This document shows, piece after piece, positions 5,742-40,475 of a DNA stretch of 40,475 nucleotides. Below the pieces are notes generated by a model. That model made no database searches. It was not told where the DNA came from and saw only the letters and a program-made list of their open reading frames with translations. Each line of letters begins with the position of its first letter. The stretch's first letter is position 1. Both the position numbers and the translations under genes were made by a program. The stretch lies in the IMG/VR virus record IMGVR_UViG_2875713109_000005; one strand, given 5' to 3'. This stretch comes from a virus. Lineage: Duplodnaviria > Heunggongvirae > Uroviricota > Caudoviricetes.

Positions 5742-5950
5742 CGATCCCTTCATTTAGTGACTGCCCCTGGGTTTTTCATGCTCTCCTGCGTCCTAGAGAA
5801 CTTGCCAATAACCTACATTATTTTTGCTTTGCCATTACCAATCGTCCTGAACAAGTTCATTTTAAAGCCAAAGCGCTGCCCAACTTTTATCCTCAATACC
5901 ACATCGTCAGCATGAAATAACCTAATCCCTGTGTTGGGATCTTATAATCG

Positions 5951-5969
5951 CTAATGATAATTATTTACA
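5951..5969. promoter_or_regulatory. Candidate Fur box upstream of sitA
   Basis: ctAATGATAATTATTtaca resembles the Fur consensus GATAATGATAATCATTATC. About 75-90 bp upstream of the sitA start. Confidence 0.45.
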
Positions 5970-5987
5970 TTTTATAGCTTCTGCTAT

Positions 5988-6010
5988 AAAACATAGTAGT
6001 TGCTATGTTT
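5988..6010. promoter_or_regulatory. Candidate MntR box (palindrome) upstream of sitA
   Basis: AAACATAG-N6-CTATGTTT perfect inverted repeat, matching the MntR-type palindrome. About 33 bp upstream of the sitA ATG. Confidence 0.5.
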
Positions 6011-6042
6011 ATTCTAATTTTGCTCACTATAGGTACTAAATC

Positions 6043-23177: not shown

Positions 23178-25352
23178 TTACGCCCAGTAGTTCACAACGC
23201 CATCATTCGATTCAGCCGTTTTAACCAAACGCTCTACCGATTTGGTGCAAGAAAACTCCGCCGTTATCTCTGCTTGATTATCCAACAGCGACTCAAGGCG
23301 AGGCAAGAATACACGGCTAACAAGCTCAGCTTTACTGTAATCGCCTACTTGCTTATCACCATCAAATGTGAATTTTGGTAGCACCTTATGAACGATAAAG
23401 TTGTTGATGGCCAGAGACTTATTGTCGTTTACATCGCTAAACAAACTTACGTAGTTAAGCCCCTGTCGAATGGTACGCATACCAAACTCCACGCCAAGCG
23501 GATCAAAGACATCTCGGTTTAAGGTCGTAAACAACTCGCAGAATTCATTCGTACGTTCAAATTTCGGATAAGGGGTACGCTCACCAAGCTCTTCAATATC
23601 AAACACTAGCGGTAAAGTAACGTCGTCTAGCCCGTAAGAGTCAATCTCATCAAAAATCGCATCCCAGTCGGTCAGCAAAGGACTCTTAAACTTCATCACA
23701 TGCGCGCGGTCAAGAATTTTTGGTGAGAGGTAATGGGTTGTTTCGTCGATGTTGATAGCACCAATAATTCTTACGTTCGCTGGAATCGTGATTGACGAAG
23801 GCGTGCCGAGAACACCTGCCAACATGCGTCTGATATCACCGTGGTATTTAATCAGTGAGTCTTTATCGCTAAAGCCAAACGCGCGCTTCATTTCAGCGTT
23901 AATTTCTTCATCTTGCATGAGCGCAACGAAGTCCACGATGCCATTTTTGCTGAACTTTTCTTGCGCGTTAGAAATGACAGAAACAACCCCTTTTAGCTCG
24001 GCAAGAACGTGTGCAGCTTCATCATCCGAGTAAAGTTGAATGGTCGGTTGCTCGTTACGCTCCTCTAGCTTAGAAAGAAAGTCGGCAAAGTAATATTCCA
24101 CTCGGGCAAGGTTCATTTCGTCTAAACAGATGAAGTATGGGATATCTGGGTTTTGCTTAGCCTCGATCAATGCCTCAAGAAATGGTGTCACCAAATATTT
24201 CTTCTCTAGGGGATTGTAATAACCCAGCAAATCTTCTGAACTAGTCCAGTTAGGCTTGACCGGAATGATCTTCGATACCCCACCAATAGCCTTGGCAAAC
24301 GACTGAACCAGGTTTGTTTTGCCTGAGCCTGAGTCCCCCGCCAGAATGATGAGATCATGGGTGCGAATAAGCGTTAGGAAGTTCTCGATAATATGGCGCG
24401 GGTACAAGATATCTCGTTCTTTTAGGTGCGCTTGAATGTATGAAACGGCATCACTGTAGTTAGAATCAAAAGCTTGCGAAAAAGAGATATGCTCGTCACG
24501 ATCCTTATTAGACAAGGTGCTTCCAACAAAAAGGTCAAAATCGTCATCATCCAAAAACTCAAAGCTTTTTAGGAATCCAGCCTTACTTTCGACATAAGCT
24601 TTTAAGCGTTCAATTTTTTTAGACATTGTTTCTTCTGCCTTCTTTTGCAATGCGATTTTGTGTTGCCATTCAGAGTGTTCAACTTCCAGCTTTTGGGCTT
24701 TCGCAATTGCCTGAGAGAGAACGTTATTTTTTTGATTTAGGTCATCTTGGACATGTTGAAGCTGATCTTTATATGACGATATCTGAGCCTTCAATGAGGA
24801 TTCTTCGCGCTCAAATTCTGCGTTAAGTGCAGTCACTTCGCTGTCAATTCTTGATTGAACGTTCTGTAAATGCTGCTTGTAAACAGCTTCATCAAGGAAG
24901 ATGTTTTCATCACCTTTGATGATGTCATTCGCCGTATATTCAGGAAGTTTGATAAGTCGACGGACTGAACTTACTACCACATTGCATTCGAACGGGTTTT
25001 CATGTTTTTCGCGTTCAGATTGAGGCGCTAAAGCAAGCTCGCATGAGACAAAACTCCCATCTTCCAAGCCAAATAACTCTTCGACACTTTTGAAGGAAAC
25101 AAAAACACCTTTGTCCATCGTCAAACGAACATTAATGGGATATTCAGTATCCAGTCCCGTTTGGAGGGATTTAATCTCTAAAAGACGGGTTGGGAGCTTT
25201 CTGCTATCGGAATCTGGGCCATTTAGAATCTTGCCCCAAACTGCCAGTTTTCCATTCGTAATCCCCCAACTCTCACAAAGGCATTGATAAAGCTCTTCAT
25301 CAGAGAACCCTTTAACCTCTTCAAGATTGTAGATAACTTGTTCTAAGGCCAT
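23178..25352 (-). CDS. P-loop AAA+ NTPase, McrB/AAA_5-like, with N-terminal domain and coiled coil (724 aa)
   Basis: Walker A LAGDSGSGKT (338-346), Walker B FICLDEMNLA (407-416) with the DE-x-N pattern of AAA_5/McrB proteins, sensor-like RIIGAINIDETT (528-539). Heptad-rich region about 165-255. Confidence 0.8.
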   Translation of the reverse strand: MALEQVIYNLEEVKGFSDEELYQCLCESWGITNGKLAVWGKILNGPDSDSRKLPTRLLEIKSLQTGLDTEYPINVRLTMDKGVFVSFKSVEELFGLEDGSFVSCELALAPQSEREKHENPFECNVVVSSVRRLIKLPEYTANDIIKGDENIFLDEAVYKQHLQNVQSRIDSEVTALNAEFEREESSLKAQISSYKDQLQHVQDDLNQKNNVLSQAIAKAQKLEVEHSEWQHKIALQKKAEETMSKKIERLKAYVESKAGFLKSFEFLDDDDFDLFVGSTLSNKDRDEHISFSQAFDSNYSDAVSYIQAHLKERDILYPRHIIENFLTLIRTHDLIILAGDSGSGKTNLVQSFAKAIGGVSKIIPVKPNWTSSEDLLGYYNPLEKKYLVTPFLEALIEAKQNPDIPYFICLDEMNLARVEYYFADFLSKLEERNEQPTIQLYSDDEAAHVLAELKGVVSVISNAQEKFSKNGIVDFVALMQDEEINAEMKRAFGFSDKDSLIKYHGDIRRMLAGVLGTPSSITIPANVRIIGAINIDETTHYLSPKILDRAHVMKFKSPLLTDWDAIFDEIDSYGLDDVTLPLVFDIEELGERTPYPKFERTNEFCELFTTLNRDVFDPLGVEFGMRTIRQGLNYVSLFSDVNDNKSLAINNFIVHKVLPKFTFDGDKQVGDYSKAELVSRVFLPRLESLLDNQAEITAEFSCTKSVERLVKTAESNDGVVNYWA

Positions 25353-25599
25353 GATTTCTATTCAAAAAATAAATAAAGGGATTACCTAAGTGTTGCAAAC
25401 TCAACACATCTACATCTAGAGAAAAACAGGTTTAGCTTTGCTTCTTATCTAGCATTTTTTAGCGAGATAATCGCCAACGAGCATTTCAATAAATTCTTTA
25501 AGCTCCTGATATTAAACACCATAAGTCTAATATGGCAACAGTTTCTATAATCGCGTTTCGCGAATCCGTGTGACCTGCCCCCAGGATTAGATACAACCG

Positions 25600-26433
25600 T
25601 CAGTTAGTAAGGTCGGTTTGTTTACCTTCACATTTTCCATTTCGCCACCGTGCTGCAAACTCTGATGGCGTCTGATAATTCAGTGCTGAATGTGGACGAC
25701 ACTCGTTATAATCCTGCCGCCAGTCATTAATGATTTTCCTTGCGTGAACGATATCGCTGAACCAGTGCTCATTCAGGCATTCATCGCGAAATCGTCCGTT
25801 AAAGCTCTCAATAAATCCGTTCTGCGTTGGCTTGCCCGGCTGGATTAAGCGCAACTCAACACCATGCTCAAAGGCCCATTGATCCAGTGCACGGCAAGTG
25901 AACTCCGGCCCCTGGTCAGTTCTTATCGTCGCCGGATAGCCTCGAAACAGTGCAATGCTGTCCAGAATACGCGAGACCTGAACGCCTGAAATCCCAAAGG
26001 CAACAGTGACCGTCAGGCATTCCTTTGTGAAATCATCGACGCAGGTAAGACACTTGATCCTGCGACCGGTGGAAAGTGCGTCCATGACGAAATCCATCGA
26101 CCAGGTCAGATTGGGCGCCGCCGGACGGAGCAGCGGCAGACGTTCTGTTGCCAGCCCTTTACGACGTCTTCTGCGTTTTACGCCCAGGCCACTGAGGTGA
26201 TAAAGCCGGTACACGCGCTTATGATTAACATGAAGCCCTTCACGGCGCAGCAATTGCCAAATACGACGGTAGCCAAAACGCCTGCGCTCCAGTGCCAGCT
26301 CAGTGATGCGCCCTGATAAATGCGCATCAGCAGCCGGACGGTGAGCCTCATAGCGGCAGGTCGACAGGGACAAACCTGTAAGCCTGCAGGCACGACGTTG
26401 CGACAGACCGGTCGCATCACACATCAGCATCAC
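25600..26433 (-). CDS. IS3-family transposase OrfB (DDE/rve integrase domain), probably expressed as an OrfAB frameshift fusion
   Basis: Contains LTWSMDFV...[10 protein letters not shown]...[14 protein letters not shown] integrase-core residues. Overlaps the orfA frame. Confidence 0.8.
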
Positions 26434-26456
26434 GGCTTCCCGCTTCTGGTCTGTCG

Positions 26457-26720
26457 TCAGTACTTTCGCCCAAGAGCCACCTGAAGCGCCTCTTTATCCA
26501 GCATGGCTTCGGCAAGCAGCTTCTTGAGTCTGGCGTTCTCTTCCTCAAGCGACTTCAGGCGCTTAACTTCAGGCACCTCCATACCGCCATACTTCTTACG
26601 CCAGGTGTAAAACGTGGCATCGGAAATGGCATGCTTGCGGCAGAGTTCACGGGCGGGTACCCCAGCTTCGGCTTCGCGGAGAATACTGATGATCTGTTCG
26701 TCGGAAAAACGCTTCTTCAT
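26457..26720 (-). CDS. IS3-family transposase OrfA (HTH plus leucine zipper)
   Basis: 87 aa [46 protein letters not shown]... typical IS3-family OrfA, close to IS407-group OrfA as recalled. Confidence 0.8.
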
Positions 26721-26797
26721 GGGGATGTCCTCATGTGGCTTATGAAGACATTACTAACATCGGGGTGTACTAATCAACGGGGAGCAGGTCATAGTCT

Positions 26798-26873
26798 ATG
26801 GGCACACCACGTTTTACCCCTGAATTTAAGGAAGAAGCTGTCCGCCAAATCACCGAGCGGGGCTATTCCATCT
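26798..26873 (+). pseudogene. Possible 5' remnant of another IS3-family orfA, truncated by IS903
   Basis: Encodes MGTPRFTPEFKEEAVRQITERGYSI, resembling IS3-family OrfA N-termini. Cut off by the IS903 terminal repeat at 26874. Confidence 0.35.
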
Positions 26874-28260
26874 GGCTTTGTTGAATAAATCAGATTTCGG
26901 GTAAGTCTCCCCCGTAGCGGGTTGTGTTTTCAGGCAATACGCACGCTTTCAGGCATACCTGCTTTCGTCATTTTGTTCAGCGCTCGTACCAGGGCCATAG
27001 CCTCCGCAACCTGACCATCGTTACCCGGTACATCGCCGTTTCCGCTATCGAGCGACGGTTGTAATCTGTTGTCCATTTCCACCGCGCATTACTCCCGGTC
27101 ATTCGCTGATTAGCCACTGCACGGTTACGGTCTGCATATTCACCGGGCCAGTAACCCGCACCTTTTCGGGGAGGGATAAGNGCGCTGATTTTCTTACGCC
27201 GCAGTTCATCGTGACAGAGCCGGGTGTCGTAAGCGCCGTCTGCCGATGCTGCCCTGATTTTTCTGTGAGTCTGCCGGATAAGACCCGGGAAGGCTTCTGA
27301 GTCCGTCACATTGTTCAGCGACAGGTCTGCACAGATGATTTCATGTGTGTTGCTGTCAACTGCCAGATGCAACTTTCGCCATATACGACGGCGTTCCTGG
27401 CCATGCTTTTTGACTTTCCACTCGCCTTCACCAAAGACCTTCAGCCCGGTGGAATCAATCACCAGATGCGCGATTTCACCCCGGGTGAACGTTTTGAAAC
27501 TGACGTTAACCGACTTTGCCCGCCTGCTGACACAGCTGTAATCCGGGCANGATGATTTCATGTGTGTTGCTGTCAACTGCCAGATGCAACTTTCGCCATA
27601 TACGACGGCGTTCCTGGCCATGCTTTTTGACTTTCCACTCGCCTTCACCAAAGACCTTCAGCCCGGTGGAATCAATCACCAGATGCGCGATTTCACCCCG
27701 GGTGAACGTTTTGAAACTGACGTTAACCGACTTTGCCCGCCTGCTGACACAGCTGTAATCCGGGCAGCGNANCGGAACNTTCATCAGNGNAAAAATGGAA
27801 TCAATAAAGCCCTGCGCAGCGCGCAGGGTCAGCCTGAATACGCGTTTAATGACCAGCACAGTCGTGATGGCAAGGTCAGAATAGCGCTGGGGCCTTCCCC
27901 GTGATGAAGGCGTTGCCGACTCATACCAGGCCTGAATCGCCCCATCATCCAGCCAGAAAGTGAGGGAGCCACGGTTGATGAGAGCTTTGTTGTAGGTGGA
28001 CCAGTTGGTGATTCTGAACTTTTGCTTTGCCACGGAATGGTCTGTGTTGTCGGGAGGATGCGTGATCTGATCCTTCAACTCAGCAAAAGTTCGATTTATT
28101 NNNNNNNNNNNNNNNNNNNNNCGGTTGATGAGAGCTTTGTTGTAGGTGGACCAGTTGGTGATTCTGAACTTTTGCTTTGCCACGGAATGGTCTGTGTTGT
28201 CGGGAGGATGCGTGATCTGATCCTTCAACTCAGCAAAAGTTCGATTTATTCAACAAAGCC
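26874..28260 (-). mobile_element. IS903 copy, scrambled in this assembly (N runs and exact internal duplications)
   Basis: IS903 terminal repeats at 26874 and (reverse complement) ending 28260. Transposase reading frames present but interrupted by N at 27181, 27550, 27770-27790 and 28101-28121; segments duplicated (27343-27549 = 27560-27767; 27973-28100 = 28122-28250). About 1.39 kb versus about 1.06 kb for IS903. Confidence 0.75.
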
Positions 28261-28742
28261 CCAACCAATTAGCAATTCGCTTTTCGCATGTGCTAAAACA
28301 CCACTCTGGGTGTGCATCATTTAGCAATTCAGCCATTTTGCGTTTGGTCATCCCCCGCCCCTCATACCGTTGCCGAAGGACGCTAATCAATCCTGGATGC
28401 TCTGCCAGCACCTCACTTATGACCCGATCAATACATAACGCCTCTGCATCAGTACAATGCGCCAGCCAGCTCTTTTGCTTACCGTTAATCATATCCCGCA
28501 AAAAAGCCTCAAGTTCAGACTTGTTCAGACCTGCTTTTTTCATCCTCCGGAGCGCCTCGTTAATTGCCGTTTTTGTCAGCTTTTTAGAGGCCAACAACTG
28601 GTTGAACATATTCCCCGTCTTACCGCCGCCAATATACGACCAGCGCCCCCACATGCGCAGTTTTCCCTGAATCCAGACACTTTCCAGCGTGGTGAGACGA
28701 AGGTGTTCCCCGCTTTTGCCTGTATTTGTTGGGTAAATCATA
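28250..28742 (-). CDS. Putative late-gene regulator (antiterminator Q-like by position); 3' end abuts or is altered by IS903
   Basis: 164 aa from MIYPTNTGKSGEH...; start overlaps the upstream stop as ATGA. Lies directly downstream of nin-type genes where lambdoid phages encode Q. Last codons and stop fall in the IS903 terminal repeat. Family not confirmed. Confidence 0.4.
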
Positions 28743-29028
28743 AATAACCTTCCTTTCTCCAGATTTCTTGCGTGCGAAAAACACCTTCTGCATGCATCAG
28801 GCGTAAATCTTCTTTGGTGTAATCGCTTGTTTTTACCCGCCCGTCGATTAAATCGTGGCATGAGCTACAGGCAATCGCCGCCTGCATATCGTGTGGTTTT
28901 GTCGCTGTTCCGCACGTTCCCGCCAGTCGGTAATGCGCCAGCACAGACGTTTCCGGATCGTGATTGCAGTAGCCAAGAATTCTGACGGTGCACATCCGCC
29001 CCCGCGCCGCTTTACGTAAATCCACCAT
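28738..29028 (-). CDS. YbcO-like DUF1364 protein (putative phage nuclease, nin region)
   Basis: 96 aa MVDLRKAARGRMCTVRILGYCNHDPETSVLAHYRL...CSSCHD, cysteine/histidine-rich. Resembles DLP12 YbcO as recalled. Confidence 0.6.
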   Translation of the reverse strand: MVDLRKAARGRMCTVRILGYCNHDPETSVLAHYRLAGTCGTATKPHDMQAAIACSSCHDLIDGRVKTSDYTKEDLRLMHAEGVFRTQEIWRKEGYL

Positions 29029-29627
29029 TACGCAAACTCCAGCAGCTGCGCGGCCACATTTTCGACTTGTTCCGGAGAGGAAAATTTACGGAACAGAATC
29101 CAGTTCCACAGCACATTCAGAACAGATTTATAAACCTGCTGAAACTCGGTTTCGTCCATATTCGCAAAAGCGATAGATTTTGCCCGACGCCCGCGGCTAC
29201 CGTCCGGATAAAAATGTTCGGTGTAAAATCCAGCCTGAATGGTTACCCACTCGCGAAAAGCCTCAAACGACTTTAGCAATGCCGTATCCCGGGTTCTGCG
29301 TGTCGCAACTGTATTCAGATATTGCTCTGCGGCTTCGCTCAGAGCTGGCGTATGTTCCCGGCCTACTGATTCACATAGGTAATCAACGAATCCTGAAACC
29401 AGCTTTCGTTCGCGAGGCGTGATCGCCCCACCGACCGGAGTCCAGTAATCGAATCCCAGTTGCAGGAGTTTGAAAAAACGCTTGTGGAATGCGTAGTTAC
29501 GCACACGCTTAAAGTCTGCGTGTATCCACTCGCCTATTTTGATTTGATGCAAAAAATCGCAACTCTCCGGCGTCGCCGGGAGAAGTAGTCCAGAAGAGGT
29601 TTGTTTGACCAGTTGTATATGCGCCAT
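29028..29627 (-). CDS. Hypothetical nin-region phage protein (199 aa)
   Basis: ORF immediately upstream of and overlapping the YbcO-like gene. No motif recognised with certainty. Confidence 0.5.
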   Translation of the reverse strand: MAHIQLVKQTSSGLLLPATPESCDFLHQIKIGEWIHADFKRVRNYAFHKRFFKLLQLGFDYWTPVGGAITPRERKLVSGFVDYLCESVGREHTPALSEAAEQYLNTVATRRTRDTALLKSFEAFREWVTIQAGFYTEHFYPDGSRGRRAKSIAFANMDETEFQQVYKSVLNVLWNWILFRKFSSPEQVENVAAQLLEFA

Positions 29628-29905
29628 TTCTCAATCTCTCGATGGCGCAGTGCAGCAGATGCCAGTTGTTCAGGCTGACGAATAAAGTATAAATAAACTG
29701 GCTATGGTGTAAAGCTCCACATAACATGAACAAACACTACATATCAAATAGCTGATACAAGGATAGAAATACAACACTTATTATTAAAAACGATTAGATA
29801 AATTACATTTTAATGTTATGAAAAAGTTCTTTTTTATCATAACATTTCAACAAAAGCATTACAGATGCACATCCCGTCATCATCAATTATTTAAGGTGGT
29901 TAAAC

Positions 29906-29992
29906 ATGGAAAATAACAACTATGCACATCTCGCTCCTTTTTTATCCGTAATCCTTTTCGCTGGCTGTTTTATATGGGCATTATTTTTATAA
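29906..29992 (+). CDS. Possible small hydrophobic peptide (28 aa)
   Basis: AAGGTGG RBS-like sequence 8 nt upstream of the ATG. Encodes MENNNYAHLAPFLSVILFAGCFIWALFL (one TM helix). Within a long AT-rich intergenic stretch. Confidence 0.2.
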   Translation: MENNNYAHLAPFLSVILFAGCFIWALFL

Positions 29993-30494
29993 AGTAGCCG
30001 CATGATTAGTTTCTGGAATCATGTTTCCCACTCAAATCATTAACATTTGATAAGATATATCTAAAAGGATGCCTTTACATTATTTGATGCGTATATGATT
30101 TATTTATATGCACAGTAAAGGCATCCTGGAAATAATCAAGATTAATGATATATTGCTTATCTCATCCCCCACTGTCTTTCACCCGGAAAACATTTATCGT
30201 TAAAAATATATCATAAGTAATTAAATTGAAATTTCAGAACACAACTAATGCACACAATAAGATTCAGTAACAGTAATCTATGCGGACTATATCGAGATTT
30301 TTTAGTTAAACTTTAATAAGTTATTCCTAACACACAGAATGCACAAACTAAAAGTAAAACAAATAGTTATACGAAAAACAACCATATTGATTCTATCTTC
30401 TCCTCTAATCAACATATCAATTATGTGTTTCATAACAGCTTGACATAACCCTCAAAAAGGTGCATTTATAATGCATGTTTTATGGGAGGTGGTT

Positions 30495-30836
30495 ATGACA
30501 CACAAGAGAATTCCTAAAGACTGGGTAATCAAACGCTCAACTCCGTTCTTCACAAAAGAGAACGTACCTTCAGCGTTATTAACACATCATAATACAGCAG
30601 CAGGTGTTTTTGGACAGTTATGCGTGATGGAAGGTACTGTAACATATTATGGTTTTGCTGATGAGAATGCTACTGAACCGGAGATAAAAGTAGTCATTAA
30701 TGCTGGCGCTTTTGCAACAAGCCCACCACAATACTGGCACCGTGTTGAACTAAGCGATGATGCTCAGTTTAATATTAACTTTTGGGTAGCTCCAGACTTC
30801 TCAGGCGAAAAAGTCTATACCGCAAAAAAAGAATAG
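30495..30836 (+). CDS. YeaR-like DUF1971 protein (TehB-related domain)
   Basis: 113 aa from MTHKRIPKDWVIKRSTPFFTKENVP... with GGAGGTGG RBS. Resembles E. coli YeaR as recalled (RSTPF..., ...YYGFADENATEPE..., ...FNINFWVAP). Confidence 0.65.
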   Translation: MTHKRIPKDWVIKRSTPFFTKENVPSALLTHHNTAAGVFGQLCVMEGTVTYYGFADENATEPEIKVVINAGAFATSPPQYWHRVELSDDAQFNINFWVAPDFSGEKVYTAKKE

Positions 30837-30918
30837 CCACGCTATAAATATCTTATTAACTAGTCCCGGCGTGGTTCTTTCCCCGCTGGGTCTTTTACTC
30901 AGATTAGTAGTCTACGAA

Positions 30919-31044
30919 TCAGAGCCTCCGTCTGCCAGTTCGGATTCGTACCTCGCAGAGGTCTTTCCTCGTTACCAGTGCCGTCACTATGACGGTTAAA
31001 CAGATGACGATCAGGGCGATTAACATCGCCTTTTGCTGCTTCAT
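30919..31044 (-). CDS. Hok/Gef-family type I toxin with altered C-terminus (41 aa as encoded)
   Basis: MKQQKAMLIALIVICLTVIVTALVTRKDLCEVRIRTG matches the HokD/RelF-type N-terminus and TM helix by recall, then reads RRRL-stop instead of QTEVAVFTAYEPEE. Overlapping mok-like frame upstream. Confidence 0.55.
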   Translation of the reverse strand: MKQQKAMLIALIVICLTVIVTALVTRKDLCEVRIRTGRRRL

Positions 31045-31566
31045 AGCCTGCTTCTCCTTGACCTTTCGGTCCGTAAGAGGCTAATCTCTATGTGTCGCAT
31101 AGATATGGCCTCAGATTAATGTTAAACGTCTTGCAGGACGCGTAATGTTAACTGGGGCTTTTCTCTATCTACCTTTGGTGTTCATGCCCGAGGCAGATAG
31201 CCTCAAGCACCCACAGCAATTCTAACTATCCAATACATCACTGCCAACACTTTAAACTCTTACCCTTTAAAACAAGAACAAAATTCAACCAATCAGCATT
31301 GGGCGTATACTCATATCCTAGAGAAAACAACTCTTTCTGTACCATTTATATCCATATGATTTATAAGCATTTGCCACTTGCCATAGCCGCACAATGACAG
31401 TTTGCCATTTGATGTCAATAGATAAAAATGATCGTTTTCAATGAGTTACATACTTGCAAGGCGTTGCACATCAGGCCCGATTACGTCAGTATCAAAAGAT
31501 TACAGATGGTGCATTACTGCCACCTCGCCTTAATGTTCCAGAACTCTCCAACTTGAGGAATTTTCA

Positions 31567-32340
31567 ATGACATCCTTTCAATTATCTTTGATTTCTCGTG
31601 AAATTGACGGCGAAATAATACATTTACGTGCCAAAGATGGTTACATAAACGCCACATCAATGTGTAGAACTGCGGGCAAACTGCTCTCTGATTACACTAG
31701 ACTCAAAACTACTCAAGAGTTTTTTGACGAATTATCACGCGATATGGGAATTCCCATATCGGAGTTAATTCAATCATTTAAAGGTGGAAGACCTGAAAAC
31801 CAAGGGACATGGGTGCATCCTGACATCGCTATTAATCTAGCGCAGTGGCTATCGCCCAAATTTGCAGTCCAGGTTTCAAGATGGGTTCGTGAATGGATGT
31901 CAGGGGAAAGAACTACAGCAGAAATGCCTGTACATTTAAAACGGTACATGGTTAATCGTAGTAGAATTCCTCACACGCACTTTTCTATTCTTAATGAACT
32001 GACATTCAACTTGGTTGCACCTCTTGAACAAGCAGGGTACACACTCCCAGAAAAAATGGTTCCTGACATTTCACAAGGAAGAGTATTTTCACAATGGTTA
32101 AGAGATAATAGAAACGTAGAACCCAAAACATTCCCTACCTATGACCATGAATATCCCGATGGTCGCGTATACCCTGCAAGGCTGTACCCAAATGAATATT
32201 TAGCAGATTTCAAAGAACATTTTAACAATGTTTGGTTGCCGCAATATGCCCCGAAATACTTCGCTGACCGGGACAAAAAGGCTCTCGCCTTGATTGAAAA
32301 AATTATGCTACCTAACCTCGATGGCAATGAACAGTTCTAA
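31567..32340 (+). CDS. KilA-N domain protein
   Basis: N-terminal region (IDGEIIHLRAKDGYINATSMCRTAGKLLSDYTRLKTTQEF) has the KilA-N/APSES-type signature common in lambdoid prophages. Confidence 0.65.
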   Translation: MTSFQLSLISREIDGEIIHLRAKDGYINATSMCRTAGKLLSDYTRLKTTQEFFDELSRDMGIPISELIQSFKGGRPENQGTWVHPDIAINLAQWLSPKFAVQVSRWVREWMSGERTTAEMPVHLKRYMVNRSRIPHTHFSILNELTFNLVAPLEQAGYTLPEKMVPDISQGRVFSQWLRDNRNVEPKTFPTYDHEYPDGRVYPARLYPNEYLADFKEHFNNVWLPQYAPKYFADRDKKALALIEKIMLPNLDGNEQF

Positions 32341-32460
32341 ATGATTAGCCAGCCCCATAAGGGCTGGTTATTTAGTATTATCAACCCCAGCGGCAAATCG
32401 AATACACCACCAGCGCCACCGCCATCGCAATTCCTACCGTTGTGAATGCTTCAGGCCAGG

Positions 32461-32964
32461 TCATCGTAAAACATCCTCCACGCTTATAAGTCCGCTTCGC
32501 TCCAGGTAGTCCATCACTTTATCCGGCAATTTGCAGCCCGGTTTCGCTTTCTTCAGTTGACTAACCAATTGTTTAACCAGCATTGTCAATTCGCGAACTT
32601 GTTTCCCGGGCTCCCCTTTGCCCTGAAGCAGGGCAGCGCGGCAAGCGTTCCATCCCTCAGCATATGTTTCAGTTACACCATCGAGATGGCATGTAAGCAA
32701 ATCCATTTCTTCCGGCACTACGGGCGCTGGAAAAACGGCATAGGGTGGCGTCCATTTTGGCGCTTTATCTCCAGCCGAACGCTGATACCAGTCATCCGGT
32801 TTGTATTCATAAAAATCACCAACTGGCTCTGCTTCCAGCGATGCCAGAGCAATTTTGAATAATTCGCCCTCTACCCGTGCCATCCCTGAATTGGGGTGGC
32901 ATTTCTCAATCGCTATTTTTAATTTAGCTTCTTCGATTAATTGCTTTTTGGTTAATTCAGTCAT
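32461..32964 (-). CDS. Hypothetical phage protein (167 aa)
   Basis: ORF in the early-right region; no motif recognised. Confidence 0.5.
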   Translation of the reverse strand: MTELTKKQLIEEAKLKIAIEKCHPNSGMARVEGELFKIALASLEAEPVGDFYEYKPDDWYQRSAGDKAPKWTPPYAVFPAPVVPEEMDLLTCHLDGVTETYAEGWNACRAALLQGKGEPGKQVRELTMLVKQLVSQLKKAKPGCKLPDKVMDYLERSGLISVEDVLR

Positions 32965-33126
32965 TTTTCATTACCGCCCTTTCGGGCCGCCTCCTAATAT
33001 TTTGAGGGTGCAGCCCCCCCCCTCCGGTTAAGGATTAAATTTTATTTACAGTGCTAAATTTAATTATTCAGATTTGGATTATGATTTCTCTTTCAGTTCA
33101 CGCAGTTCCCTGATTGTTAATTTGGC

Positions 33127-33564
33127 TCACAACAGCACATCCTGAAAATTACCCTGATAGAACGCCAGTACACGCTGCATGACTTCGCTCTTCCGGCACT
33201 CGCGACAGATTATATTCAGACGCCTGTCATAGCGGCGTATTTCTCCGTCTGGTAATGACCAGATAAGGTCCGGATCAACTACAGCAGGTTTCTTCACCTT
33301 TGCCCTCGATAGTTTTTTGCGGGCGTTTTGCCAGTCTTTACGCGCCTGTTCAGACGGGAATAACCCGTAACCAGAGTTGTATACATCGCCACTGGCAACC
33401 AGCTCACTGGCGAGAACACTCATCAGATATCTTGTCGCACCTGTCTTGGCTTCCAGTTGCCGTAACGTCTCGCGACCGCTCAGACGTACAAGTTCAACAA
33501 CCTGCCCTTTAATTTTTTCCCGCTCTTCTGGTGTAAATACTTTTGCCATAGGTGCCTCCGGCAA
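33127..33564 (-). CDS. Hypothetical phage protein (145 aa; start may be the Met 5 codons in)
   Basis: Basic protein with C-terminal CxxC (ICRECRK); abuts the upstream gene stop. Confidence 0.5.
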   Translation of the reverse strand: MPEAPMAKVFTPEEREKIKGQVVELVRLSGRETLRQLEAKTGATRYLMSVLASELVASGDVYNSGYGLFPSEQARKDWQNARKKLSRAKVKKPAVVDPDLIWSLPDGEIRRYDRRLNIICRECRKSEVMQRVLAFYQGNFQDVLL

Positions 33565-34359
33565 TCACTTTTCCGATGCAACATGGCGGGAAGAATCAGT
33601 AATCTGTCGTACAATATCCCTGTGCTTGTTCAACTCACGCAGCGCGGCGCAGACACACTCCCACTTCTGGACATGATTTTTCGCCCGACGCAGTTCGCGG
33701 TTTGCCATATGCAGTGATGGTAAAACCAGGTCATCCGCTCGCGTTTCAGTAAACGATGGCAGCGACTGCACAATGTCCGCCACAGTTTCTGTTTTAATAT
33801 CTTCCTGTGTTGCAGCCTCCTGTACTGGTAACGCAACACCTGCGGTCTGAGGAAAGGCCTTACCATCAGTTTCCGCTACCGATGCTGCTTTCGGCTCTGC
33901 TGGTAAATTATCGCCCGGTATGCAGTAACGAAATTTACCGCCCTGATTTACGCGAATCAGACGACCTTTGCTGATTGCCATTGCCAGCGTTGAAGCCACT
34001 TTGCGTGATGTGGTACCAAACAATGTAGCCAGCTCATCAGCCGTTTGTGGTCCGCGTTGTTCAATCGTCGCGGTTAAATCGCACTCTGAGATTTTCGCTA
34101 CTGTTGCTGTGGTGGTTTCTTCCAGCAGTTCTACCTGCGCTGGCTGTTCCTGCTGAACGTTGTTATCAGCCACACGCCAGGTGTACGCGCTTTTATCAAC
34201 ACAACCAGCCTTTTTCAGTTCCCATAGTTCGTTCAGCACTTCTTCACGACTGATATCAAGTCGAGCAGCAAGTTCTATGGATGTGGCTTTTCCCATTGCT
34301 TTCAGTGCGTCAAAAACAGTCTCCATTAAATTTTTCTCCCGGTAAAAATTACTTCGCAA
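33565..34359 (-). CDS. Hypothetical phage replication-region protein with N-terminal winged-helix-like segment (264 aa; alternative start at 34326)
   Basis: N-terminus [43 protein letters not shown] looks like a wHTH. Overlaps the stop of the DnaC-like gene. Confidence 0.5.
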
Positions 34360-34828
34360 TTCCTAGCTGGACGACATTCGGACGCCAGCTCTCCCAGTTA
34401 AAATTCACCCATCGCCCGCCGTTCATGGTCATGCGATCCATAATCCGCTCGCCGAGCAATGTTTTCATGGCCTCATAGTTCAGGTTTGTCAGCATCCCCA
34501 CGCTGCGCATCGAAGCTGTCCGGCGATCAACAATCTGGTGCAGTACCACCTGCTCGTTTTTCGTCTCGCGCTGAATGCCAATTTCATCAAGAACCAGCAG
34601 ATCCACTTCGCACAGTTCCCGCAAAAATTTTTCGCCTGACTGCCCGTCGTCATAGCTGGCGTGCAGGGCACTCATAACATCAGCCACGGTAACCACAATC
34701 ACTGTCTGACCGTCTTTCAGCAGGCGATTCCCGATAGCTGCCGCTAAGTGGTTCTTCCCGGTAGCCATTGCTGATTGCCCACCGACAACAGCACAAGCTT
34801 GCTTGAATGAATAGTTCTCTTTTTTCAT
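34349..34828 (-). CDS. DnaC/IstB-like helicase-loader ATPase, N-terminally short (159 aa)
   Basis: Walker A-like [18 protein letters not shown], Walker B LLVLDEIG, and HQIVDRR...[23 protein letters not shown] resembling the DnaC C-terminal half. The expected N-terminal domain of about 70 aa is absent. Confidence 0.6.
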
Positions 34829-34857
34829 CGAATGAACTCCAAAAACACACAGAAATA

Positions 34858-34925
34858 TTAGGCGACGCCTAACGCAATTGTCAATAGGCTGTGCCTAATG
34901 CGGTAAGGGTAGGGATTGCCTAATG
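34858..34925. promoter_or_regulatory. Operator-like region with TTAGGC/GCCTAA half-site repeats, left of the repressor gene
   Basis: 15-bp perfect palindrome TTAGGCGACGCCTAA (34858-34872), ATTGTCAATAGGCTGTGCCTAATG (34877-34900) and TTGCCTAATG (34916-34925), in the 123-bp divergent intergenic region. Confidence 0.5.
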
Positions 34926-34951
34926 TAATGCGCATAGGAGAATATTAAGCA

Positions 34952-35428
34952 ATGCTTAGTGGTAAAGACTTAGGCCGAGCGATAGAGCAGGCCATTAACA
35001 AAAAAATCGCATCGGGATCCGTCAAATCAAAGGCGGAGGTCGCACGCCACTTCAAAGTCCAACCACCATCAATTTATGACTGGATTAAGAAAGGCTCTAT
35101 AAGTAAAGATAAACTTCCAGAATTATGGCGTTTCTTTTCTGATGTTGTTGGTCCAGAGCATTGGGGGCTTAACGAATACCCCATACCAACCCCCACCAAT
35201 TCAGATACAAAAAGTGAACTTTTAGATATAAACAACCTTTATCAAGCAGCCTCTGATGAAATAAGAGCGATTGTAGCTTTCCTGTTATCTGGAAATGCTA
35301 CAGAACCAGATTGGGTTGACCACGATGTTCGCGCCTACATAGCAGCGATGGAAATGAAAGTGGGTAAGTATCTGAAAGCTCTAGAATCTGAACGGAAAAG
35401 CCAGAACATCACAAAAACTGGAACTTAA
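34952..35428 (+). CDS. racR: Prophage repressor, RacR-like (HTH)
   Basis: 158 aa; N-terminal HTH (GRAIEQAINKKIASGSVKSKAEVARHFKVQPPSIYDWIKKG). Same length and position (divergent from the replication genes) as Rac RacR as recalled. Confidence 0.7.
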   Translation: MLSGKDLGRAIEQAINKKIASGSVKSKAEVARHFKVQPPSIYDWIKKGSISKDKLPELWRFFSDVVGPEHWGLNEYPIPTPTNSDTKSELLDINNLYQAASDEIRAIVAFLLSGNATEPDWVDHDVRAYIAAMEMKVGKYLKALESERKSQNITKTGT

Positions 35429-35505
35429 ACTTATATGGTCTGACGGAAAACTCCTGGATTCCGTTATTTAACCCCCCCATCACTTTCTGCTGTCGCCATC
35501 ACCTA

Positions 35506-35560
35506 TTAGGTTACGCTCAAAACATTAGGCATAGCCTATTGACAATCAATTAGGCATTAC
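35506..35560. promoter_or_regulatory. Second operator-like region, inverted copy of the left site
   Basis: CATTAGGCATAGCCTATTGACAAT (35523-35546) is the reverse complement of 34877-34900 at 23 of 24 positions. Additional ATTAGG half-sites at 35506-35515 and 35550-35556. Confidence 0.5.
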
Positions 35561-35736
35561 CTATAGTTCCAGCATACCACCCACCCCGCCCCACAGAACG
35601 CCGGGCAATACTTCGAGTTACCAGGCAGTGGTAAGGGGTTAAGTAGCCAGCCCGAGGCGTATGAACATGACGGCGGGATTCAAATTTTGCAGTGCAGCAG
35701 TTAGTTCCGCCACCCGGCGTTAAGGGGAGAGATAAG

Positions 35737-35871
35737 ATGGTGCATTACGAAGTAGTTCAGTATTTGATGGATTGTTGCGGTATCACTTACAACCAGGCTG
35801 TGCAGGCTTTACGCAGCAACGCCTGGGATCTCTGGCAGGCAGAAGTCGCTATACGTAGCAACAAGATGTGA
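35737..35871 (+). CDS. ydaG: Small Rac-type protein (44 aa), YdaG-like
   Basis: AAGGGGAG RBS before the ATG. Encodes MVHYEVVQYLMDCCGITYNQAVQALRSNAWDLWQAEVAIRSNKM. Size and position match Rac ydaG as recalled. Below the ORF-track length cutoff. Confidence 0.5.
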   Translation: MVHYEVVQYLMDCCGITYNQAVQALRSNAWDLWQAEVAIRSNKM

Positions 35872-35881
35872 GATTCGCAAA

Positions 35882-36037
35882 ATGCAAAAAATCGACCTCG
35901 GCAACAACGAATCCCTGGTGTGCGGCGTGTTCCCCAACCAGGATGGAACGTTCACTGCCATGACGTATACCAAAAGCAAAACATTTAAAACCGAAACTGG
36001 TGCGCGCCGATGGTTGGAGAAGCACACAGTAAGCTAA
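35882..36037 (+). CDS. ydaF: Small Rac-type protein (51 aa), YdaF-like
   Basis: Encodes MQKIDLGNNESLVCGVFPNQDGTFTAMTYTKSKTFKTETGARRWLEKHTVS. Convergent with sieB. Size and position match Rac ydaF as recalled. Confidence 0.5.
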   Translation: MQKIDLGNNESLVCGVFPNQDGTFTAMTYTKSKTFKTETGARRWLEKHTVS

Positions 36038-36522
36038 CGATTAAAACGTCTACTCCTGCTGTTCCAGAATAACTTCATAAAATGGGAGTATTTTTCGGTG
36101 ACGAGATAATAAGAACAGTTTGCGCTATCACTCTGATGTTGAATGATGCCCTTCCGTTCTAATTTTTTCATAACCGGGTTACGGCAAGGAGAAGTGATAA
36201 TAAGATTTCCTGTTTTAAGGAAATCTTTAAATACAGCGATTTCTTTCTCAGATAAACGAAGCAATACTCGTTGCTCTGGTAGTAATGAATAATGCTTTTG
36301 AATATGTGCTCGCAATCTTGAGAAGGAAATGGCGACCACGAAAGAAAAGGCAAAAACGATAATCTGAAAGAGCCAAGGTATTTCAGTATAAGCATTGAAT
36401 GCGACAGTAAACTCTTTCGGTATCAGCCAGAGAGTGAGACCAAAAATGATAATCGTATACATAAGTCTTTCGAGTGGCTCGTTAGCAAAAAGTTTCAACA
36501 ATGGAGTAAATACATCCAACAT
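36034..36522 (-). CDS. sieB: Superinfection exclusion protein SieB
   Basis: 162 aa from the internal Met (MLDVFTPLLKLFANEPLERLMYTIIIFGLTLWLIPKEF...), membrane protein. Size and position match Rac SieB as recalled. Confidence 0.75.
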   Translation of the reverse strand: MLDVFTPLLKLFANEPLERLMYTIIIFGLTLWLIPKEFTVAFNAYTEIPWLFQIIVFAFSFVVAISFSRLRAHIQKHYSLLPEQRVLLRLSEKEIAVFKDFLKTGNLIITSPCRNPVMKKLERKGIIQHQSDSANCSYYLVTEKYSHFMKLFWNSRSRRFNR

Positions 36523-36962
36523 ATCAATAACTCTCAACTGTAAGGGTATTGAAATGTTAACACAAGCTCTCGCTGTAGGGGTATAGCCGAGACCACCGAA
36601 GCCCGGAGGTGGTGAAATAAAACCGGGCACAACACGAAGGCGCATTTCCGATATCCATAAAGAGTCGGTCTTGTCTGTTAAATTTAAATGGTGGGAGTGC
36701 GCCTCCGGTTGTAAATAACGACATTGCTGTGTGTAGTCCTGGCGGCATCAGTTTTTTCTTGAAGTTCGGCTGATGTCCGCCCTTTTTTAAGTGAATTTTG
36801 TGATGCGGTGAATGCGGCTAAGCGCACGTGGCACAGTTAAAAGTCATGTTAGTCCTTATTGGTTTGGGTGGGAAAGCCGACTGTAATTGTTAACTGGTTG
36901 CAGTCACCTGGAGGCACCAGGCACCGCATCAACAAAGTTCATTTGTAAAAATGGAGATAATT

Positions 36963-37184
36963 ATGATTGCACATCACTTCGGAACTGATGAAATACCACG
37001 TCAGTGTGTGACTCCTGGCGATTATGTTCTTCATGAAGGCCGGACATATATTGCCTCGGCAAACAATATTAAAAAGCGAAAACTATATATTCGTAACCTG
37101 ACCACAAAAACATGCATTACTGACCGCATGATTAAAGTCTTCCTCGGTCGTGATGGTTTACCTGTAAAGGCGGAGTCATGGTGA
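36963..37184 (+). CDS. kilR: Prophage killing protein KilR (FtsZ inhibitor)
   Basis: 73 aa [46 protein letters not shown]...; first gene of the leftward early operon analogue. Recognised from memory. Confidence 0.7.
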
Positions 37185-37354
37185 TGACTAAGAAAATAAA
37201 ATGTGCTTACCACCTTTGCAAAAAAGACGTTGAAGAAAGCAAAGCTATTGAAAGAATGCTTCACTTCATGCACGGGATTTTATCAAAAGACGAACCGAGA
37301 AAATATTGCAGTGAATCTTGTGCCGAAAAAGACCAGATGGCACATGAACTTTAA
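37184..37354 (+). CDS. ydaE: YdaE-like small cysteine-rich protein (56 aa)
   Basis: [56 protein letters not shown]. Start overlaps the kilR stop (TGATG). Below the ORF-track cutoff. Confidence 0.6.
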   Translation: MTKKIKCAYHLCKKDVEESKAIERMLHFMHGILSKDEPRKYCSESCAEKDQMAHEL

Positions 37355-37428
37355 TTAATTGACTATTCGAAACTGAATTTATGCCAGAAATGGCAGGTAT
37401 TCGCTCAACCTTAATTAAGGAGAAAAAC

Positions 37429-37704
37429 ATGATTACCAATTATGAAGCCACTGTTGTAACTACCGATGACATTGTTCACGAGGTGAATCTGGAAGGAAAG
37501 CGCATTGGCTACGTAATTAAAACAGAAAATAAAGAAACCCCATTCACTGTGGTTGATATCGATGGTCCATCAGGCAACGTAAAAACACTTGATGAAGGTG
37601 TCAAAAAAATGTGCCTGGTGCATATCGGAAAGAATCTGCCCGCAGAAAAAAAAGCCGAATTTCTGGCAACTCTAATTGCAATGAAATTAAAAGGTGAAAT
37701 CTGA
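37429..37704 (+). CDS. racC: RacC-like protein
   Basis: 91 aa from MITNYEATVVTTDDIVHEVNLEGKRIGYVIK...; size and position match Rac racC as recalled. Confidence 0.7.
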   Translation: MITNYEATVVTTDDIVHEVNLEGKRIGYVIKTENKETPFTVVDIDGPSGNVKTLDEGVKKMCLVHIGKNLPAEKKAEFLATLIAMKLKGEI

Positions 37705-37805
37705 AAGAAATAGCCTGCGTATGGCGCAGGCTATGAACAGTGTGTATCCGGCAAGATCATTCACTGAACAAAACGAATTTTAATCTGAGTTGAGGTTAAA
37801 AAACA

Positions 37806-38249
37806 ATGAGCACAAAACCACTCTTCCTGTTACGGAAAGCGAAAAAATCATCCGGTGAACCTGACGTCGTCCTGTGGGCAAGCAACGATTTTGAATCGAC
37901 CTGTGCCACTCTGGACTACCTGATCGTTAAGTCAGGTAAAAAACTGAGCAGCTATTTTAAAGCTGTTGCCACGAATTTTCCTGTCGTTAATGACCTGCCC
38001 GCTGAAGGTGAGATCGATTTTACCTGGAGTGAACGCTATCAACTCAGCAAAGACTCCATGACATGGGAACTAAAACCGGGAGCAGCACCAGACAACGCTC
38101 ACTATCAAGGCAATACCAACGTCAACGGCGAAGACATGACTGAGATTGAGGAGAATATGCTACTCCCAATTTCTGGCCAGGAACTGCCCATTCGTTGGCT
38201 TGCTCAACACGGCAGCGAAAAGACGGAGGTACTCAGTTTGAAGTTATGA
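37806..38249 (+). pseudogene. recE: recE 5' remnant (exonuclease VIII N-terminal about 140 codons), deletion-truncated
   Basis: [46 protein letters not shown]... matches the RecE N-terminus as recalled, but the ORF stops after 147 codons. The full-length gene encodes 866 aa. Confidence 0.7.
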
Positions 38250-38491
38250 CGCGCAAACAGATTGAGCTGGTGCGCAGCCTGAGTAAAGCTGGTAATAACG
38301 GGCCGTGGGTAACTCACTGGGAAGAAATGGCAAAGAAAACGGCTATTCGTCGCCTGTTCAAATATCTGCCCGTATCAATTGAGATCCAGCGTGCAGTATC
38401 AATGGATGAAAAGGAACCACTGACAATCGATCCTGCAGATTCCTCTGTATTAACCGGGGAATACAGTGTAATCGATAATTCAGAGGAATAA
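38195..38491 (+). pseudogene. recT: recT 3' remnant (C-terminal about 85 codons)
   Basis: ...[88 protein letters not shown] matches the RecT C-terminus as recalled, in a different frame from the recE remnant. Junction near 38220-38230. Confidence 0.7.
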
Positions 38492-38547
38492 TTCAGCCTG
38501 GCGGTGTAATGCACCGCCAACTTGAAATATTTTTTATGAGAAAAATT

Positions 38548-38742
38548 ATGAGATATGACAATGTTAAACCATGTCCATTTTGTGGTTGTCCATCAGTAAC
38601 GGTGAAAGCCATTTCAGGATATTACCGAGCGAAGTGTAACGGATGCGAATCCCGAACCGGTTATGGTGGAAGTGAAAAAGAAGCACTCGAAAGATGGAAT
38701 AAACGAACCACTGGAAATAATAATGGAGGTGTTCATGTATAA
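38548..38742 (+). CDS. lar: Restriction alleviation protein Lar
   Basis: 64 aa MRYDNVKPCPFCGCPSVTVKAISGYYRAKCNGCESRTGYGGSEKEALERWNKR... with zinc-ribbon cysteines. Recognised from memory. Confidence 0.7.
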   Translation: MRYDNVKPCPFCGCPSVTVKAISGYYRAKCNGCESRTGYGGSEKEALERWNKRTTGNNNGGVHV

Positions 38743-38944
38743 AATTACCGCCACTATTGAAAAGGAAGGTGGCACTCCTACTAACTGGACAAGATATTCA
38801 AAATCTAAACTAACGAAATCAGAATGCGAAAAAATGCTCTCAGGTAAAAAAGAAGCAGGCGTTTCCAGAGAGCAGAAAGTAAAACTGATAAATTTTAATT
38901 GCGAGAAACTTCAGTCCTCGAGAATTGCATTGTATTCAAATTAA
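38735..38944 (+). CDS. ydaC: YdaC-like protein (69 aa)
   Basis: MYKITATIEKEGGTPTNWTRYSKSKLTKSECEKMLSGKKEAGVSREQKVKLINFNCEKL...; overlaps the lar 3' end. Size and position as in Rac. Confidence 0.65.
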   Translation: MYKITATIEKEGGTPTNWTRYSKSKLTKSECEKMLSGKKEAGVSREQKVKLINFNCEKLQSSRIALYSN

Positions 38945-39022
38945 AACTTCATAGCTGATTATTAATAATCAACATCGGGCGTCAATTTCAGTCTAACATT
39001 GGCGCCTGCCAGAGGTGATGCG

Positions 39023-39238
39023 ATGGCACAAGTAATCTTTAATGAAGAGTGGATGGTTGAATACGGCCTGATGCTTCGCACTGGTCTGGGGGCCAGACAA
39101 ATTGAAGCATACCGCCAGAACTGTTGGGTGGAGGGCTTCCACTTCAAACGAGTATCTCCTTTAGGTAAGCCAGACAGCAAACGAGGGATTATCTGGTACA
39201 ACTATCCAAAGATAAATCAGTTTATCAAAGACTCATGA
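39023..39238 (+). CDS. xisR: Excisionase-like protein (Xis/YdaQ-type)
   Basis: 71 aa [44 protein letters not shown]...; immediately upstream of the integrase. Confidence 0.7.
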
Positions 39239-39239
39239 T

Positions 39240-40475
39240 ATGTCTAAATTACCAACAGGTGTCGAGATTAGAGGTAGATACATTCGCATCTGGTTCATGT
39301 TTCGAGGAAAACGATGTCGGGAAACATTAAAAGGCTGGGAGATTACAAACAGTAATATTAAAAAGGCCGGAAATTTAAGAGCGCTGATAGTTCATGAAAT
39401 AAACTCCGGTGAATTTGAGTATTTAAGACGTTTTCCCCAGTCCAGCACTGGGGCAAAAATGGTGACAACGAGAGTCATAAAAACGTTCGGAGAGCTTTGT
39501 GATATCTGGACAAAAATTAAAGAGACAGAGTTAACAACAAACACAATGAAGAAAACGAAATCACAATTAAAAACACTCAGAATAATAATTTGTGAAAGTA
39601 CCCCGATATCACATATTCGTTATAGCGATATCTTAAACTACCGGAATGAACTGCTGCATGGAGAAACGCTTTACCTGGATAATCCAAGATCCAACAAAAA
39701 AGGAAGAACCGTGCGCACAGTTGATAACTATATCGCCCTGCTCTGTTCGCTGTTGCGTTTTGCGTATCAGTCGGGATTTATATCAACCAAACCATTTGAA
39801 GGAGTAAAAAAATTACAGCGAAACAGAATAAAGCCTGATCCGTTATCTAAAACAGAATTCAATGCATTAATGGAAAGTGAAAAAGGACAGAGCCAGAACT
39901 TGTGGAAATTTGCCGTTTACTCAGGACTTCGTCACGGGGAACTGGCAGCTCTGGCGTGGGAGGATGTGGATCTCGAAAAGGGAATAGTGAATGTCAGAAG
40001 AAACCTGACGATACTTGATATGTTCGGTCCCCCAAAAACAAATGCCGGGATCCGAACAGTAACACTACTGCAGCCTGCTCTTGAAGCACTGAAGGAGCAA
40101 TACAAACTGACCGGGCATCATCGCAAAAGCGAAATCACCTTTTATCATCGGGAGTACGGCAGAACCGAAAAGCAAAAACTGCATTTTGTTTTCATGCCCA
40201 GGGTGTGTAACGGAAAACAAAAACCTTATTACTCGGTAAGCAGTTTGGGGGCAAGGTGGAATGCAGCAGTAAAACGTGCTGGTATTCGCCGCCGTAATCC
40301 GTACCATACGCGGCATACTTTTGCCTGCTGGCTGTTGACGGCAGGAGCGAACCCGGCATTTATAGCCAGCCAAATGGGGCATGAAACTGCGCAGATGGTG
40401 TATGAAATTTACGGTATGTGGATTGATGACATGAACGACGAACAGATAGCCATGTTGAATGCGCGGTTATCGTAG
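39240..40475 (+). CDS. intR: Tyrosine site-specific integrase, Rac IntR-like
   Basis: 411 aa; C-terminal catalytic region with R...HTRHTF...Y motifs (LRHGELAALAWEDVD, NPYHTRHTFACWLLTAGANP, ...Y). Stop at the window end. Confidence 0.9.
   Translation: MSKLPTGVEIRGRYIRIWFMFRGKRCRETLKGWEITNSNIKKAGNLRALIVHEINSGEFEYLRRFPQSSTGAKMVTTRVIKTFGELCDIWTKIKETELTTNTMKKTKSQLKTLRIIICESTPISHIRYSDILNYRNELLHGETLYLDNPRSNKKGRTVRTVDNYIALLCSLLRFAYQSGFISTKPFEGVKKLQRNRIKPDPLSKTEFNALMESEKGQSQNLWKFAVYSGLRHGELAALAWEDVDLEKGIVNVRRNLTILDMFGPPKTNAGIRTVTLLQPALEALKEQYKLTGHHRKSEITFYHREYGRTEKQKLHFVFMPRVCNGKQKPYYSVSSLGARWNAAVKRAGIRRRNPYHTRHTFACWLLTAGANPAFIASQMGHETAQMVYEIYGMWIDDMNDEQIAMLNARLS

Follow-up and report, generated by a model that had tools for sequence, protein, structure and literature searches.

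The window, that is, the whole 40,475-nucleotide stretch of DNA analyzed here, carries a Rac-type cryptic prophage in the ttcA-intR integration context also occupied by Rac of E. coli K-12. In its immunity region, the ORF listing of the window places a 159-residue ORF on the minus strand (34349-34828) next to a divergent 158-residue ORF for the repressor RacR on the plus strand (34952-35428). A reading made from the letters alone (hereafter the sequence-only reading) had described these two genes as separated by only 123 bp, and had regarded the minus-strand ORF as a DnaC-like gene short at its N-terminus. Both descriptions hold: the gap (34829-34951) is 123 bp, and the ORF matches only residues 108-240 of DnaC and 112-248 of the Rac protein YdaV. 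The features of the locus, several of which are named with the aid of the annotated sister genome PSS-07 (NZ_AP027673.1), are as follows.

33565-34326, minus strand: full-length ydaW (DUF1627, 253 aa), the next gene of the early-right operon (Pfam DUF1627, E = 8e-98; PSS-07 annotation).
34349-34762, minus strand: 'ydaV, the part of the DnaC-like helicase-loader gene from codon 112 to codon 248 with its stop codon, in frame with ydaS' (136 of 137 residues as in YdaV).
34762-34763, no strand: deletion junction with the 2-bp exact microhomology TA (base-by-base comparison with K-12).
34763-34828, minus strand: ydaS', codons 1-22 of the cro-like gene, with which the chimeric ORF begins (22 of 22 residues as in YdaS 1-22).
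34829-34951, no strand: native racR-ydaS intergenic region with predicted RacR operators (TTAGGC repeats) and the predicted rightward early promoter (122 of 123 positions identical to K-12).
34952-35428, plus strand: intact racR, the CI-type Rac repressor, 158 aa (identity to K-12 RacR; PSS-07 annotation).
35539-35567, plus strand: PL-like promoter, presumably of the leftward operon, with TTAGGC operator-like repeats, downstream of racR (consensus match).

The 159-residue ORF is a chimera, in which residues 1-22 of YdaS are followed by residues 112-248 of YdaV. The first part is identical to K-12 YdaS at all 22 positions, while the second differs from the corresponding part of K-12 YdaV (248 residues in all) at a single position, the nonsynonymous change P245L, which separates the chimera from both the K-12 and the phage copies of YdaV. 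Pfam assigns the ORF to IstB_IS21 (DnaC family, E = 1.7e-15) over profile positions 102-216 of 238, with a weak additional match to Bac_DnaA, and no match to YdaS_toxin, P22_Cro or a helix-turn-helix family was found in the fusion. The intact K-12 proteins match YdaS_toxin and P22_Cro (YdaS), YdaT_toxin (YdaT) and DUF1376 (YdaU). Residues 21-152 of the chimera align with residues 108-240 of the 245 residues of E. coli DnaC (PDB 6QEL, E = 4e-43), so that the alignment begins within the P-loop and the ORF covers only the C-terminal 55% of a DnaC or YdaV protein.

Compared with the DnaC/IstB AAA+ helicase loaders (PF01695; 6QEL), the chimera shares the Walker A lysine, Walker B (DLLVLDEIG) and the C-terminal half of the AAA+ domain, but lacks any equivalent of DnaC 1-107. 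The N-terminal DnaB-binding (helicase-binding) domain is absent, its place being taken by the 22 residues from YdaS. The breakpoint runs through the Walker A loop, changing GKPGTGKN of YdaV into SAMATGKN; with the first glycine and the preceding strand gone, the fusion contains no complete GxxxxGK[T/S/N] motif. The ORF should therefore be labeled a ydaS'-'ydaV fusion pseudogene rather than a short DnaC-like gene.

The origin of this ORF is settled by nucleotide-level collinearity with K-12 Rac, for which the segment 1415000-1427000 of NC_000913 was used as the reference (L001). In BLAST, window 38221..34762 matches L001 1972..5432 at 99.74% identity, and window 34767..33877 matches L001 7313..8202 at 98.8% identity. 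Collinearity stops at codon 22 of ydaS and resumes at codon 112 of ydaV, with one breakpoint at 34762/34763. Base-by-base comparison shows that 1885 bp (L001 5433-7317) are missing relative to K-12, comprising ydaS codons 23-98, the whole of ydaT, the whole of ydaU and ydaV codons 1-111. The left K-12 match ends with ...CAATGGCTA (L001 5432) and the right match restarts at CCGGGAAG (L001 7318), giving the junction sequence CAGCAATGGCTACCGGGAAGAAC in the window, across which the reading frame is preserved. The two BLAST matches overlap by 6 bp at the junction, an overlap that contains a 1-nt gap; the only exact microhomology is the dinucleotide TA, which lies inside an imperfect TGG(C)TA / TGGTA match. 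No trace of the deleted 1885 bp, of YdaT, YdaU, the remainder of YdaS or N-terminal YdaV was found elsewhere in the 40-kb window.

The deletion of early-right genes proposed in the sequence-only reading is thus borne out by the alignment to the K-12 racR-ydaV region, which is collinear on both flanks (99.7% and 98.8% identity) with a single breakpoint and leaves the ORF aligned only to the C-terminal part of YdaV and DnaC. Its statement that no cro-like or initiator gene lies between the repressor and the DnaC-like gene is right in that ydaT, ydaU and most of ydaS are gone, and needs amending in that a 22-codon stub of the cro-like gene heads the chimeric ORF.

By analogy with lambda, and as described by Jobling (PMC5917428) and Wisniewska et al. 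(PMC11879457), YdaS and YdaT of Rac correspond to Cro and CII, and YdaU and YdaV stand in the places of O and P/DnaC. With these assignments, the deletion would have cost the element the lytic switch, the establishment activator, the initiator and half of the helicase loader. The lost segment may also have held the origin of replication oriJ. Six 9-mers resembling GATGTTCAA are clustered in a 314-bp stretch of K-12 ydaU (L001 6266-6579), wholly inside the deleted segment. In the 12-kb K-12 locus, this 9-mer has 15 matches against 4.3 expected, a count reached in none of 200 shuffles. The cluster fits a lambda-style origin placed inside the initiator gene, and on this pattern count its 9-mers are plausible candidate iterons of oriJ. 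If the cluster is the origin, oriJ would have been lost along with the 1885 bp. Published coordinates for oriJ were not found in the papers searched, and those that mention oriJ give no position.

On the repressor side of the junction, the region is that of K-12. The RacR protein of the window is 100% identical to K-12 RacR (annotated as WP_000948459.1 in PSS-07), and the 123-bp spacer is identical to that of K-12 at 122 of 123 positions, with a single T>C at 34902. The spacing that had seemed conspicuously short is the normal racR-ydaS intergenic distance, and what is abnormal is what comes after the ydaS start codon. A promoter-like sequence, TTGACA-18-TAATAT, lies on the minus strand at 34884-34855 and is directed into the chimeric ORF. 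In K-12, RacR binds three repeats in the 123-bp racR-ydaS region and represses ydaS (Krishnamurthi et al., PMC5700373), and the near-identical spacer of the window is predicted to contain the same operators, with RacR binding carried over from that study. Downstream of racR, a second promoter-like site, TTGACA-17-TATAGT (35539-35567, plus strand), matches the consensus at 11 of 12 positions, and is probably the PL/OL equivalent that drives ydaG-ydaF...kilR-racC-recE. This site is surrounded by TTAGGC repeats that resemble those in the racR-ydaS operators (window 35500-35570).

In K-12, racR is essential only through its repression of ydaS and ydaT, and a ΔracR mutant can be obtained in a ΔydaS-T strain (PMC5700373). 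Because the lethal ydaS/ydaT cargo is gone from the window prophage, this K-12 genetics implies that racR should be dispensable in a strain that carries it.

Lambdoid early regions are highly mosaic, and the phage Rac-SA53 has a 153-residue gene labeled ydaV, which could suggest that the compact layout of the window is a native immunity and replication variant, with a short helicase-loader-like gene placed directly under the repressor. The likelihood of this is negligible. The two flanks share 98.8-99.7% nucleotide identity with K-12 Rac and meet at one sharp breakpoint, the first 22 residues of the ORF are those of YdaS, and the arrangement occurs in no phage record. The Rac-SA53 protein, considered as a natural short homolog, proved unrelated to the window ORF (E = 0.26), and cro-, ydaT- and ydaU-like genes still lie between the repressor and its gene. 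The nucleotide-level breakpoint effectively refutes the native-variant explanation, and the locus is neither a new kind of immunity region nor a new compact architecture.

The closest phage comparison leads to the same breakpoint. The inducible Rac-like phage vB_EcoS-666R9 (ON470614.1) shares the 3' half of ydaV, ydaW and the lygF block with the window at 98% DNA identity, as well as the left-arm genes kil, sieB, ydaE and racC. It differs in having another repressor/cro pair and a complete cro-cII-O-DnaC-like series upstream of ydaW-lygF, with a DnaC-like protein of 248 residues of which only residues 112-248 align with the window ORF. No phage record spans the junction; every match stops at query position 1268, corresponding to window 34767, at the breakpoint. 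The sequence-only reading had named, as the observation that would tell against a deletion, intact homologous prophages with the same compact arrangement and a full-length protein of this size. None was found among the phage records, and the arrangement is present in one of 5426 complete genomes, where it is annotated as partial pseudogenes.

That genome came from a survey of 5426 complete E. coli genomes. The racR gene with the intergenic region and the 5' end of ydaS was found in 1086 of them, 582 at an identity of at least 95%. The contiguous racR-ydaS-ydaT-ydaU-ydaV block is present in 519 genomes, a proportion biased by the many K-12 laboratory derivatives among them. About 89% of the K-12-type racR loci (519/582) keep the full block. 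The deletion junction was found in a single complete genome of the set, that of PSS-07. There, the PGAP/RefSeq annotation gives ydaS' as 'transcriptional regulator, incomplete, missing C-terminus' and 'ydaV as 'ATP-binding protein, incomplete, missing N-terminus'. The two halves are therefore already flagged as partial pseudogenes in RefSeq.

By exact-sequence look-up, the identical 159-residue product was found in six assemblies, namely CP035331.1, AP027673.1, DADHAD010000016.1 and three Logan SRA assemblies. All six show the same ttcA-intR...ydaW context and 99.99-100% identity to the window around the junction, and window 24349-40475 (the stretch covered by locus L004) is 100% identical to CP035331.1. 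Elsewhere, the carriers differ by a 23.5-kb insertion, which PSS-07, for example, lacks. Repeat-bearing prophage regions are prone to misassembly, and a collapsed or misjoined contig could in principle produce such a junction, a general concern to which nothing specific to this locus can be added. An artefact of this kind is, however, virtually out of the question, given that the junction recurs in two finished chromosomes (CP035331.1 and AP027673.1), one draft NCBI assembly and the three Logan assemblies, that these assemblies are independent and differ by the 23.5-kb insertion elsewhere in the prophage, and that no repeat spans the junction beyond the 2 bp of microhomology. Since the carriers share the junction yet differ by the insertion, the junction is a genuine allele, inherited within one small lineage, and not an assembly error.

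Other Rac prophages have been shortened at other points. In strains PK8568 and SZQ1, 1320 bp are lost (L001 6241-7560), leaving a ydaU'-'ydaV junction (L003 6850-7137 in PK8568). Like the window, these strains carry an internal deletion of replication genes, with two partial pseudogenes beside an intact racR; unlike the window, the end points lie in ydaU and ydaV, and ydaS and ydaT are retained. In EC06 (H63), recE adjoins ydaU, and racR, ydaS and ydaT were lost together, as K-12 genetics would require.

The window prophage itself contains a second internal deletion of similar style, at approximately 38219-38221, where the N-terminal part of recE is joined to the C-terminal part of recT. Relative to PK8568, about 2.7 kb were lost there, with a 3-bp microhomology (AAA), and the recE and recT halves are both annotated as partial pseudogenes in PSS-07.

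K-12 Rac has in turn lost sequence that the window keeps. Its ydaW (186 aa; L001 7753-8313) is a deletion fusion relative to the window: residues 1-151 of K-12 YdaW match the full-length ydaW of the window (33565-34326), while the counterpart of residues 153-186 lies at window 2654-2553, close to the lysis genes. A block with DUF977, KilA-N, hok, Q-like, tRNA, holin and lysozyme genes, is lost from K-12 Rac and retained in the window. The two prophages are thus alike in their identical RacR, the operator/promoter region (122/123), the ydaS start, the 3' half of ydaV and flanks of 98.8-99.7% identity. They differ in the 1885 bp absent from the window (ydaS 23-98, ydaT, ydaU and ydaV 1-111), and in the full-length ydaW, DUF977/lygF, the KilA-N gene, hok, the Q-like genes and the lysis cassette that K-12 has lost.

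A deletion that removes two host-killing genes might have been positively selected, ending the dependence of the host on RacR, with RacR and its operators kept along with the remaining prophage genes (kilR, sieB, ralR, trkG etc.). Consistent with such selection, deletion of ydaS-T suppresses ΔracR lethality in K-12 and no more than about one in three of 154 genomes contained ydaS (both PMC5700373), and the same block has been struck by other natural deletions (1320 bp in PK8568; recE-ydaU in EC06). Selection is nevertheless unlikely. The allele is rare, occurring in 1 of 5426 complete genomes and in six assemblies overall, and about 89% of K-12-type racR loci (519/582) retain the full block. 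Moreover, the PK8568 deletion spares ydaS and ydaT, which argues that these deletions are not aimed specifically at the toxic genes, and the unrelated recE-recT deletion with its 3-bp microhomology in the same prophage fits undirected decay. The pattern across the Rac lineages is one of undirected deletional decay.

The ydaS'-'ydaV locus is thus, with high probability, the product of one 1885-bp internal deletion in a Rac-type cryptic prophage, an instance of ordinary prophage decay. A Rac-type cryptic prophage integrated beside ttcA underwent a single 1885-bp deletion, which would have arisen by illegitimate recombination (microhomology-mediated and RecA-independent) or by replication slippage between two TA/TGG-TA sites. 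One of these routes is most likely, and is taken as the default assumption because the exact microhomology is just 2 bp. The event removed the 76 C-terminal codons of ydaS (the Cro analogue), ydaT (the CII analogue), ydaU (DUF1376, the lambda-O-like initiator, probably with oriJ) and 111 codons of ydaV. Because the frame happens to survive a loss of this length, the start codon of ydaS, with its ribosome-binding site, now leads into ydaV codon 112, and the 159-codon chimeric ORF stands behind an intact ydaS promoter that is repressed by RacR.

The chimeric protein is most likely an inert, non-functional pseudogene product, because the Cro helix-turn-helix, the DnaB-binding domain, the first core strand and half of the P-loop have been lost, and it would be expected to remain silent under RacR repression. 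Some activity may persist in the predicted protein, as the Walker A lysine, Walker B, the C-terminal AAA+ half and the frame are kept. Together with the strong promoter and the ribosome-binding site, these same features could be taken to mean that YdaS'-'YdaV is functional, for example as a RacR-controlled truncated AAA+ module that hinders DnaC/DnaB loading or the replication of incoming Rac-like phages. This is highly improbable: by chance alone, a third of deletions keep the frame, the six copies do not differ and so give no evidence of selection, the DnaB-binding domain, first core strand and half of the P-loop are missing, no expression is expected under RacR repression, and the chimera carries the extra nonsynonymous change P245L relative to the K-12 and phage copies. 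It is likewise very unlikely that the chimera is an expressed and selected neo-protein, perhaps an AAA+ fragment that, once derepressed, blocks superinfecting Rac-like phages by poisoning their helicase loading, or that the deletion was an adaptive 'disarming' of the lethal ydaS/ydaT that made RacR non-essential and left it as a host regulator in its own right.

With the initiator lost and the loader truncated, we infer that the window prophage would not replicate after induction. The sequence-only reading had attributed a replication-defective prophage to the deletion. The loss of the initiator and half of the loader agrees with this, but the role given to the deletion was overstated, since the element is defective anyway: it has no virion genes, it carries the recE-recT deletion and its right arm is lost. 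The prophage of the sister genome PSS-07 shows neither terminase nor head or tail genes, and its right arm stops at trkG beside a sitB fragment. K-12 Rac, in which the replication genes are intact, has also been described as replication-defective after excision (PMC11879457).

The main value of the analysis is a correct annotation of the locus, with little significance beyond it. The strain is a natural racR-positive, ydaS/ydaT-negative Rac remnant, and could serve as a natural control for studies of RacR essentiality, of YdaS/YdaT toxicity and of other RacR targets. The deletion also joins the few independent microhomology deletions that show Rac being reduced in different ways in different lineages.

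The 23.5-kb insertion that distinguishes the carriers occupies window 4729-28260, inside a DUF1133/Q-like gene of the Rac remnant, and is absent from PSS-07. It ends in IS903-type inverted ends (GGCTTTGTTGAATAAATCAG...) and is flanked by a 9-bp direct duplication, CCAACCAAT (4720-4728 and 28261-28269). The matches of the insertion to plasmid DNA reach 63% coverage and 99.9% identity, and its content includes sitABCD, tet(B), Tn3-family sequences and several IS elements. It resembles plasmid cargo brought into the prophage in the manner of a composite transposon. The window consequently has two sit loci, namely a truncated chromosomal sitB fragment abutting trkG (1-327) and a second sitA-sitB copy, about 96-97% identical, in the insertion (5828-7281). 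Near trkG, in the Rz/rzpR region, a 113-bp perfect direct repeat (2185-2297 and 2319-2431, 21 bp apart) appears as a double match to K-12 L001 8432-8544.
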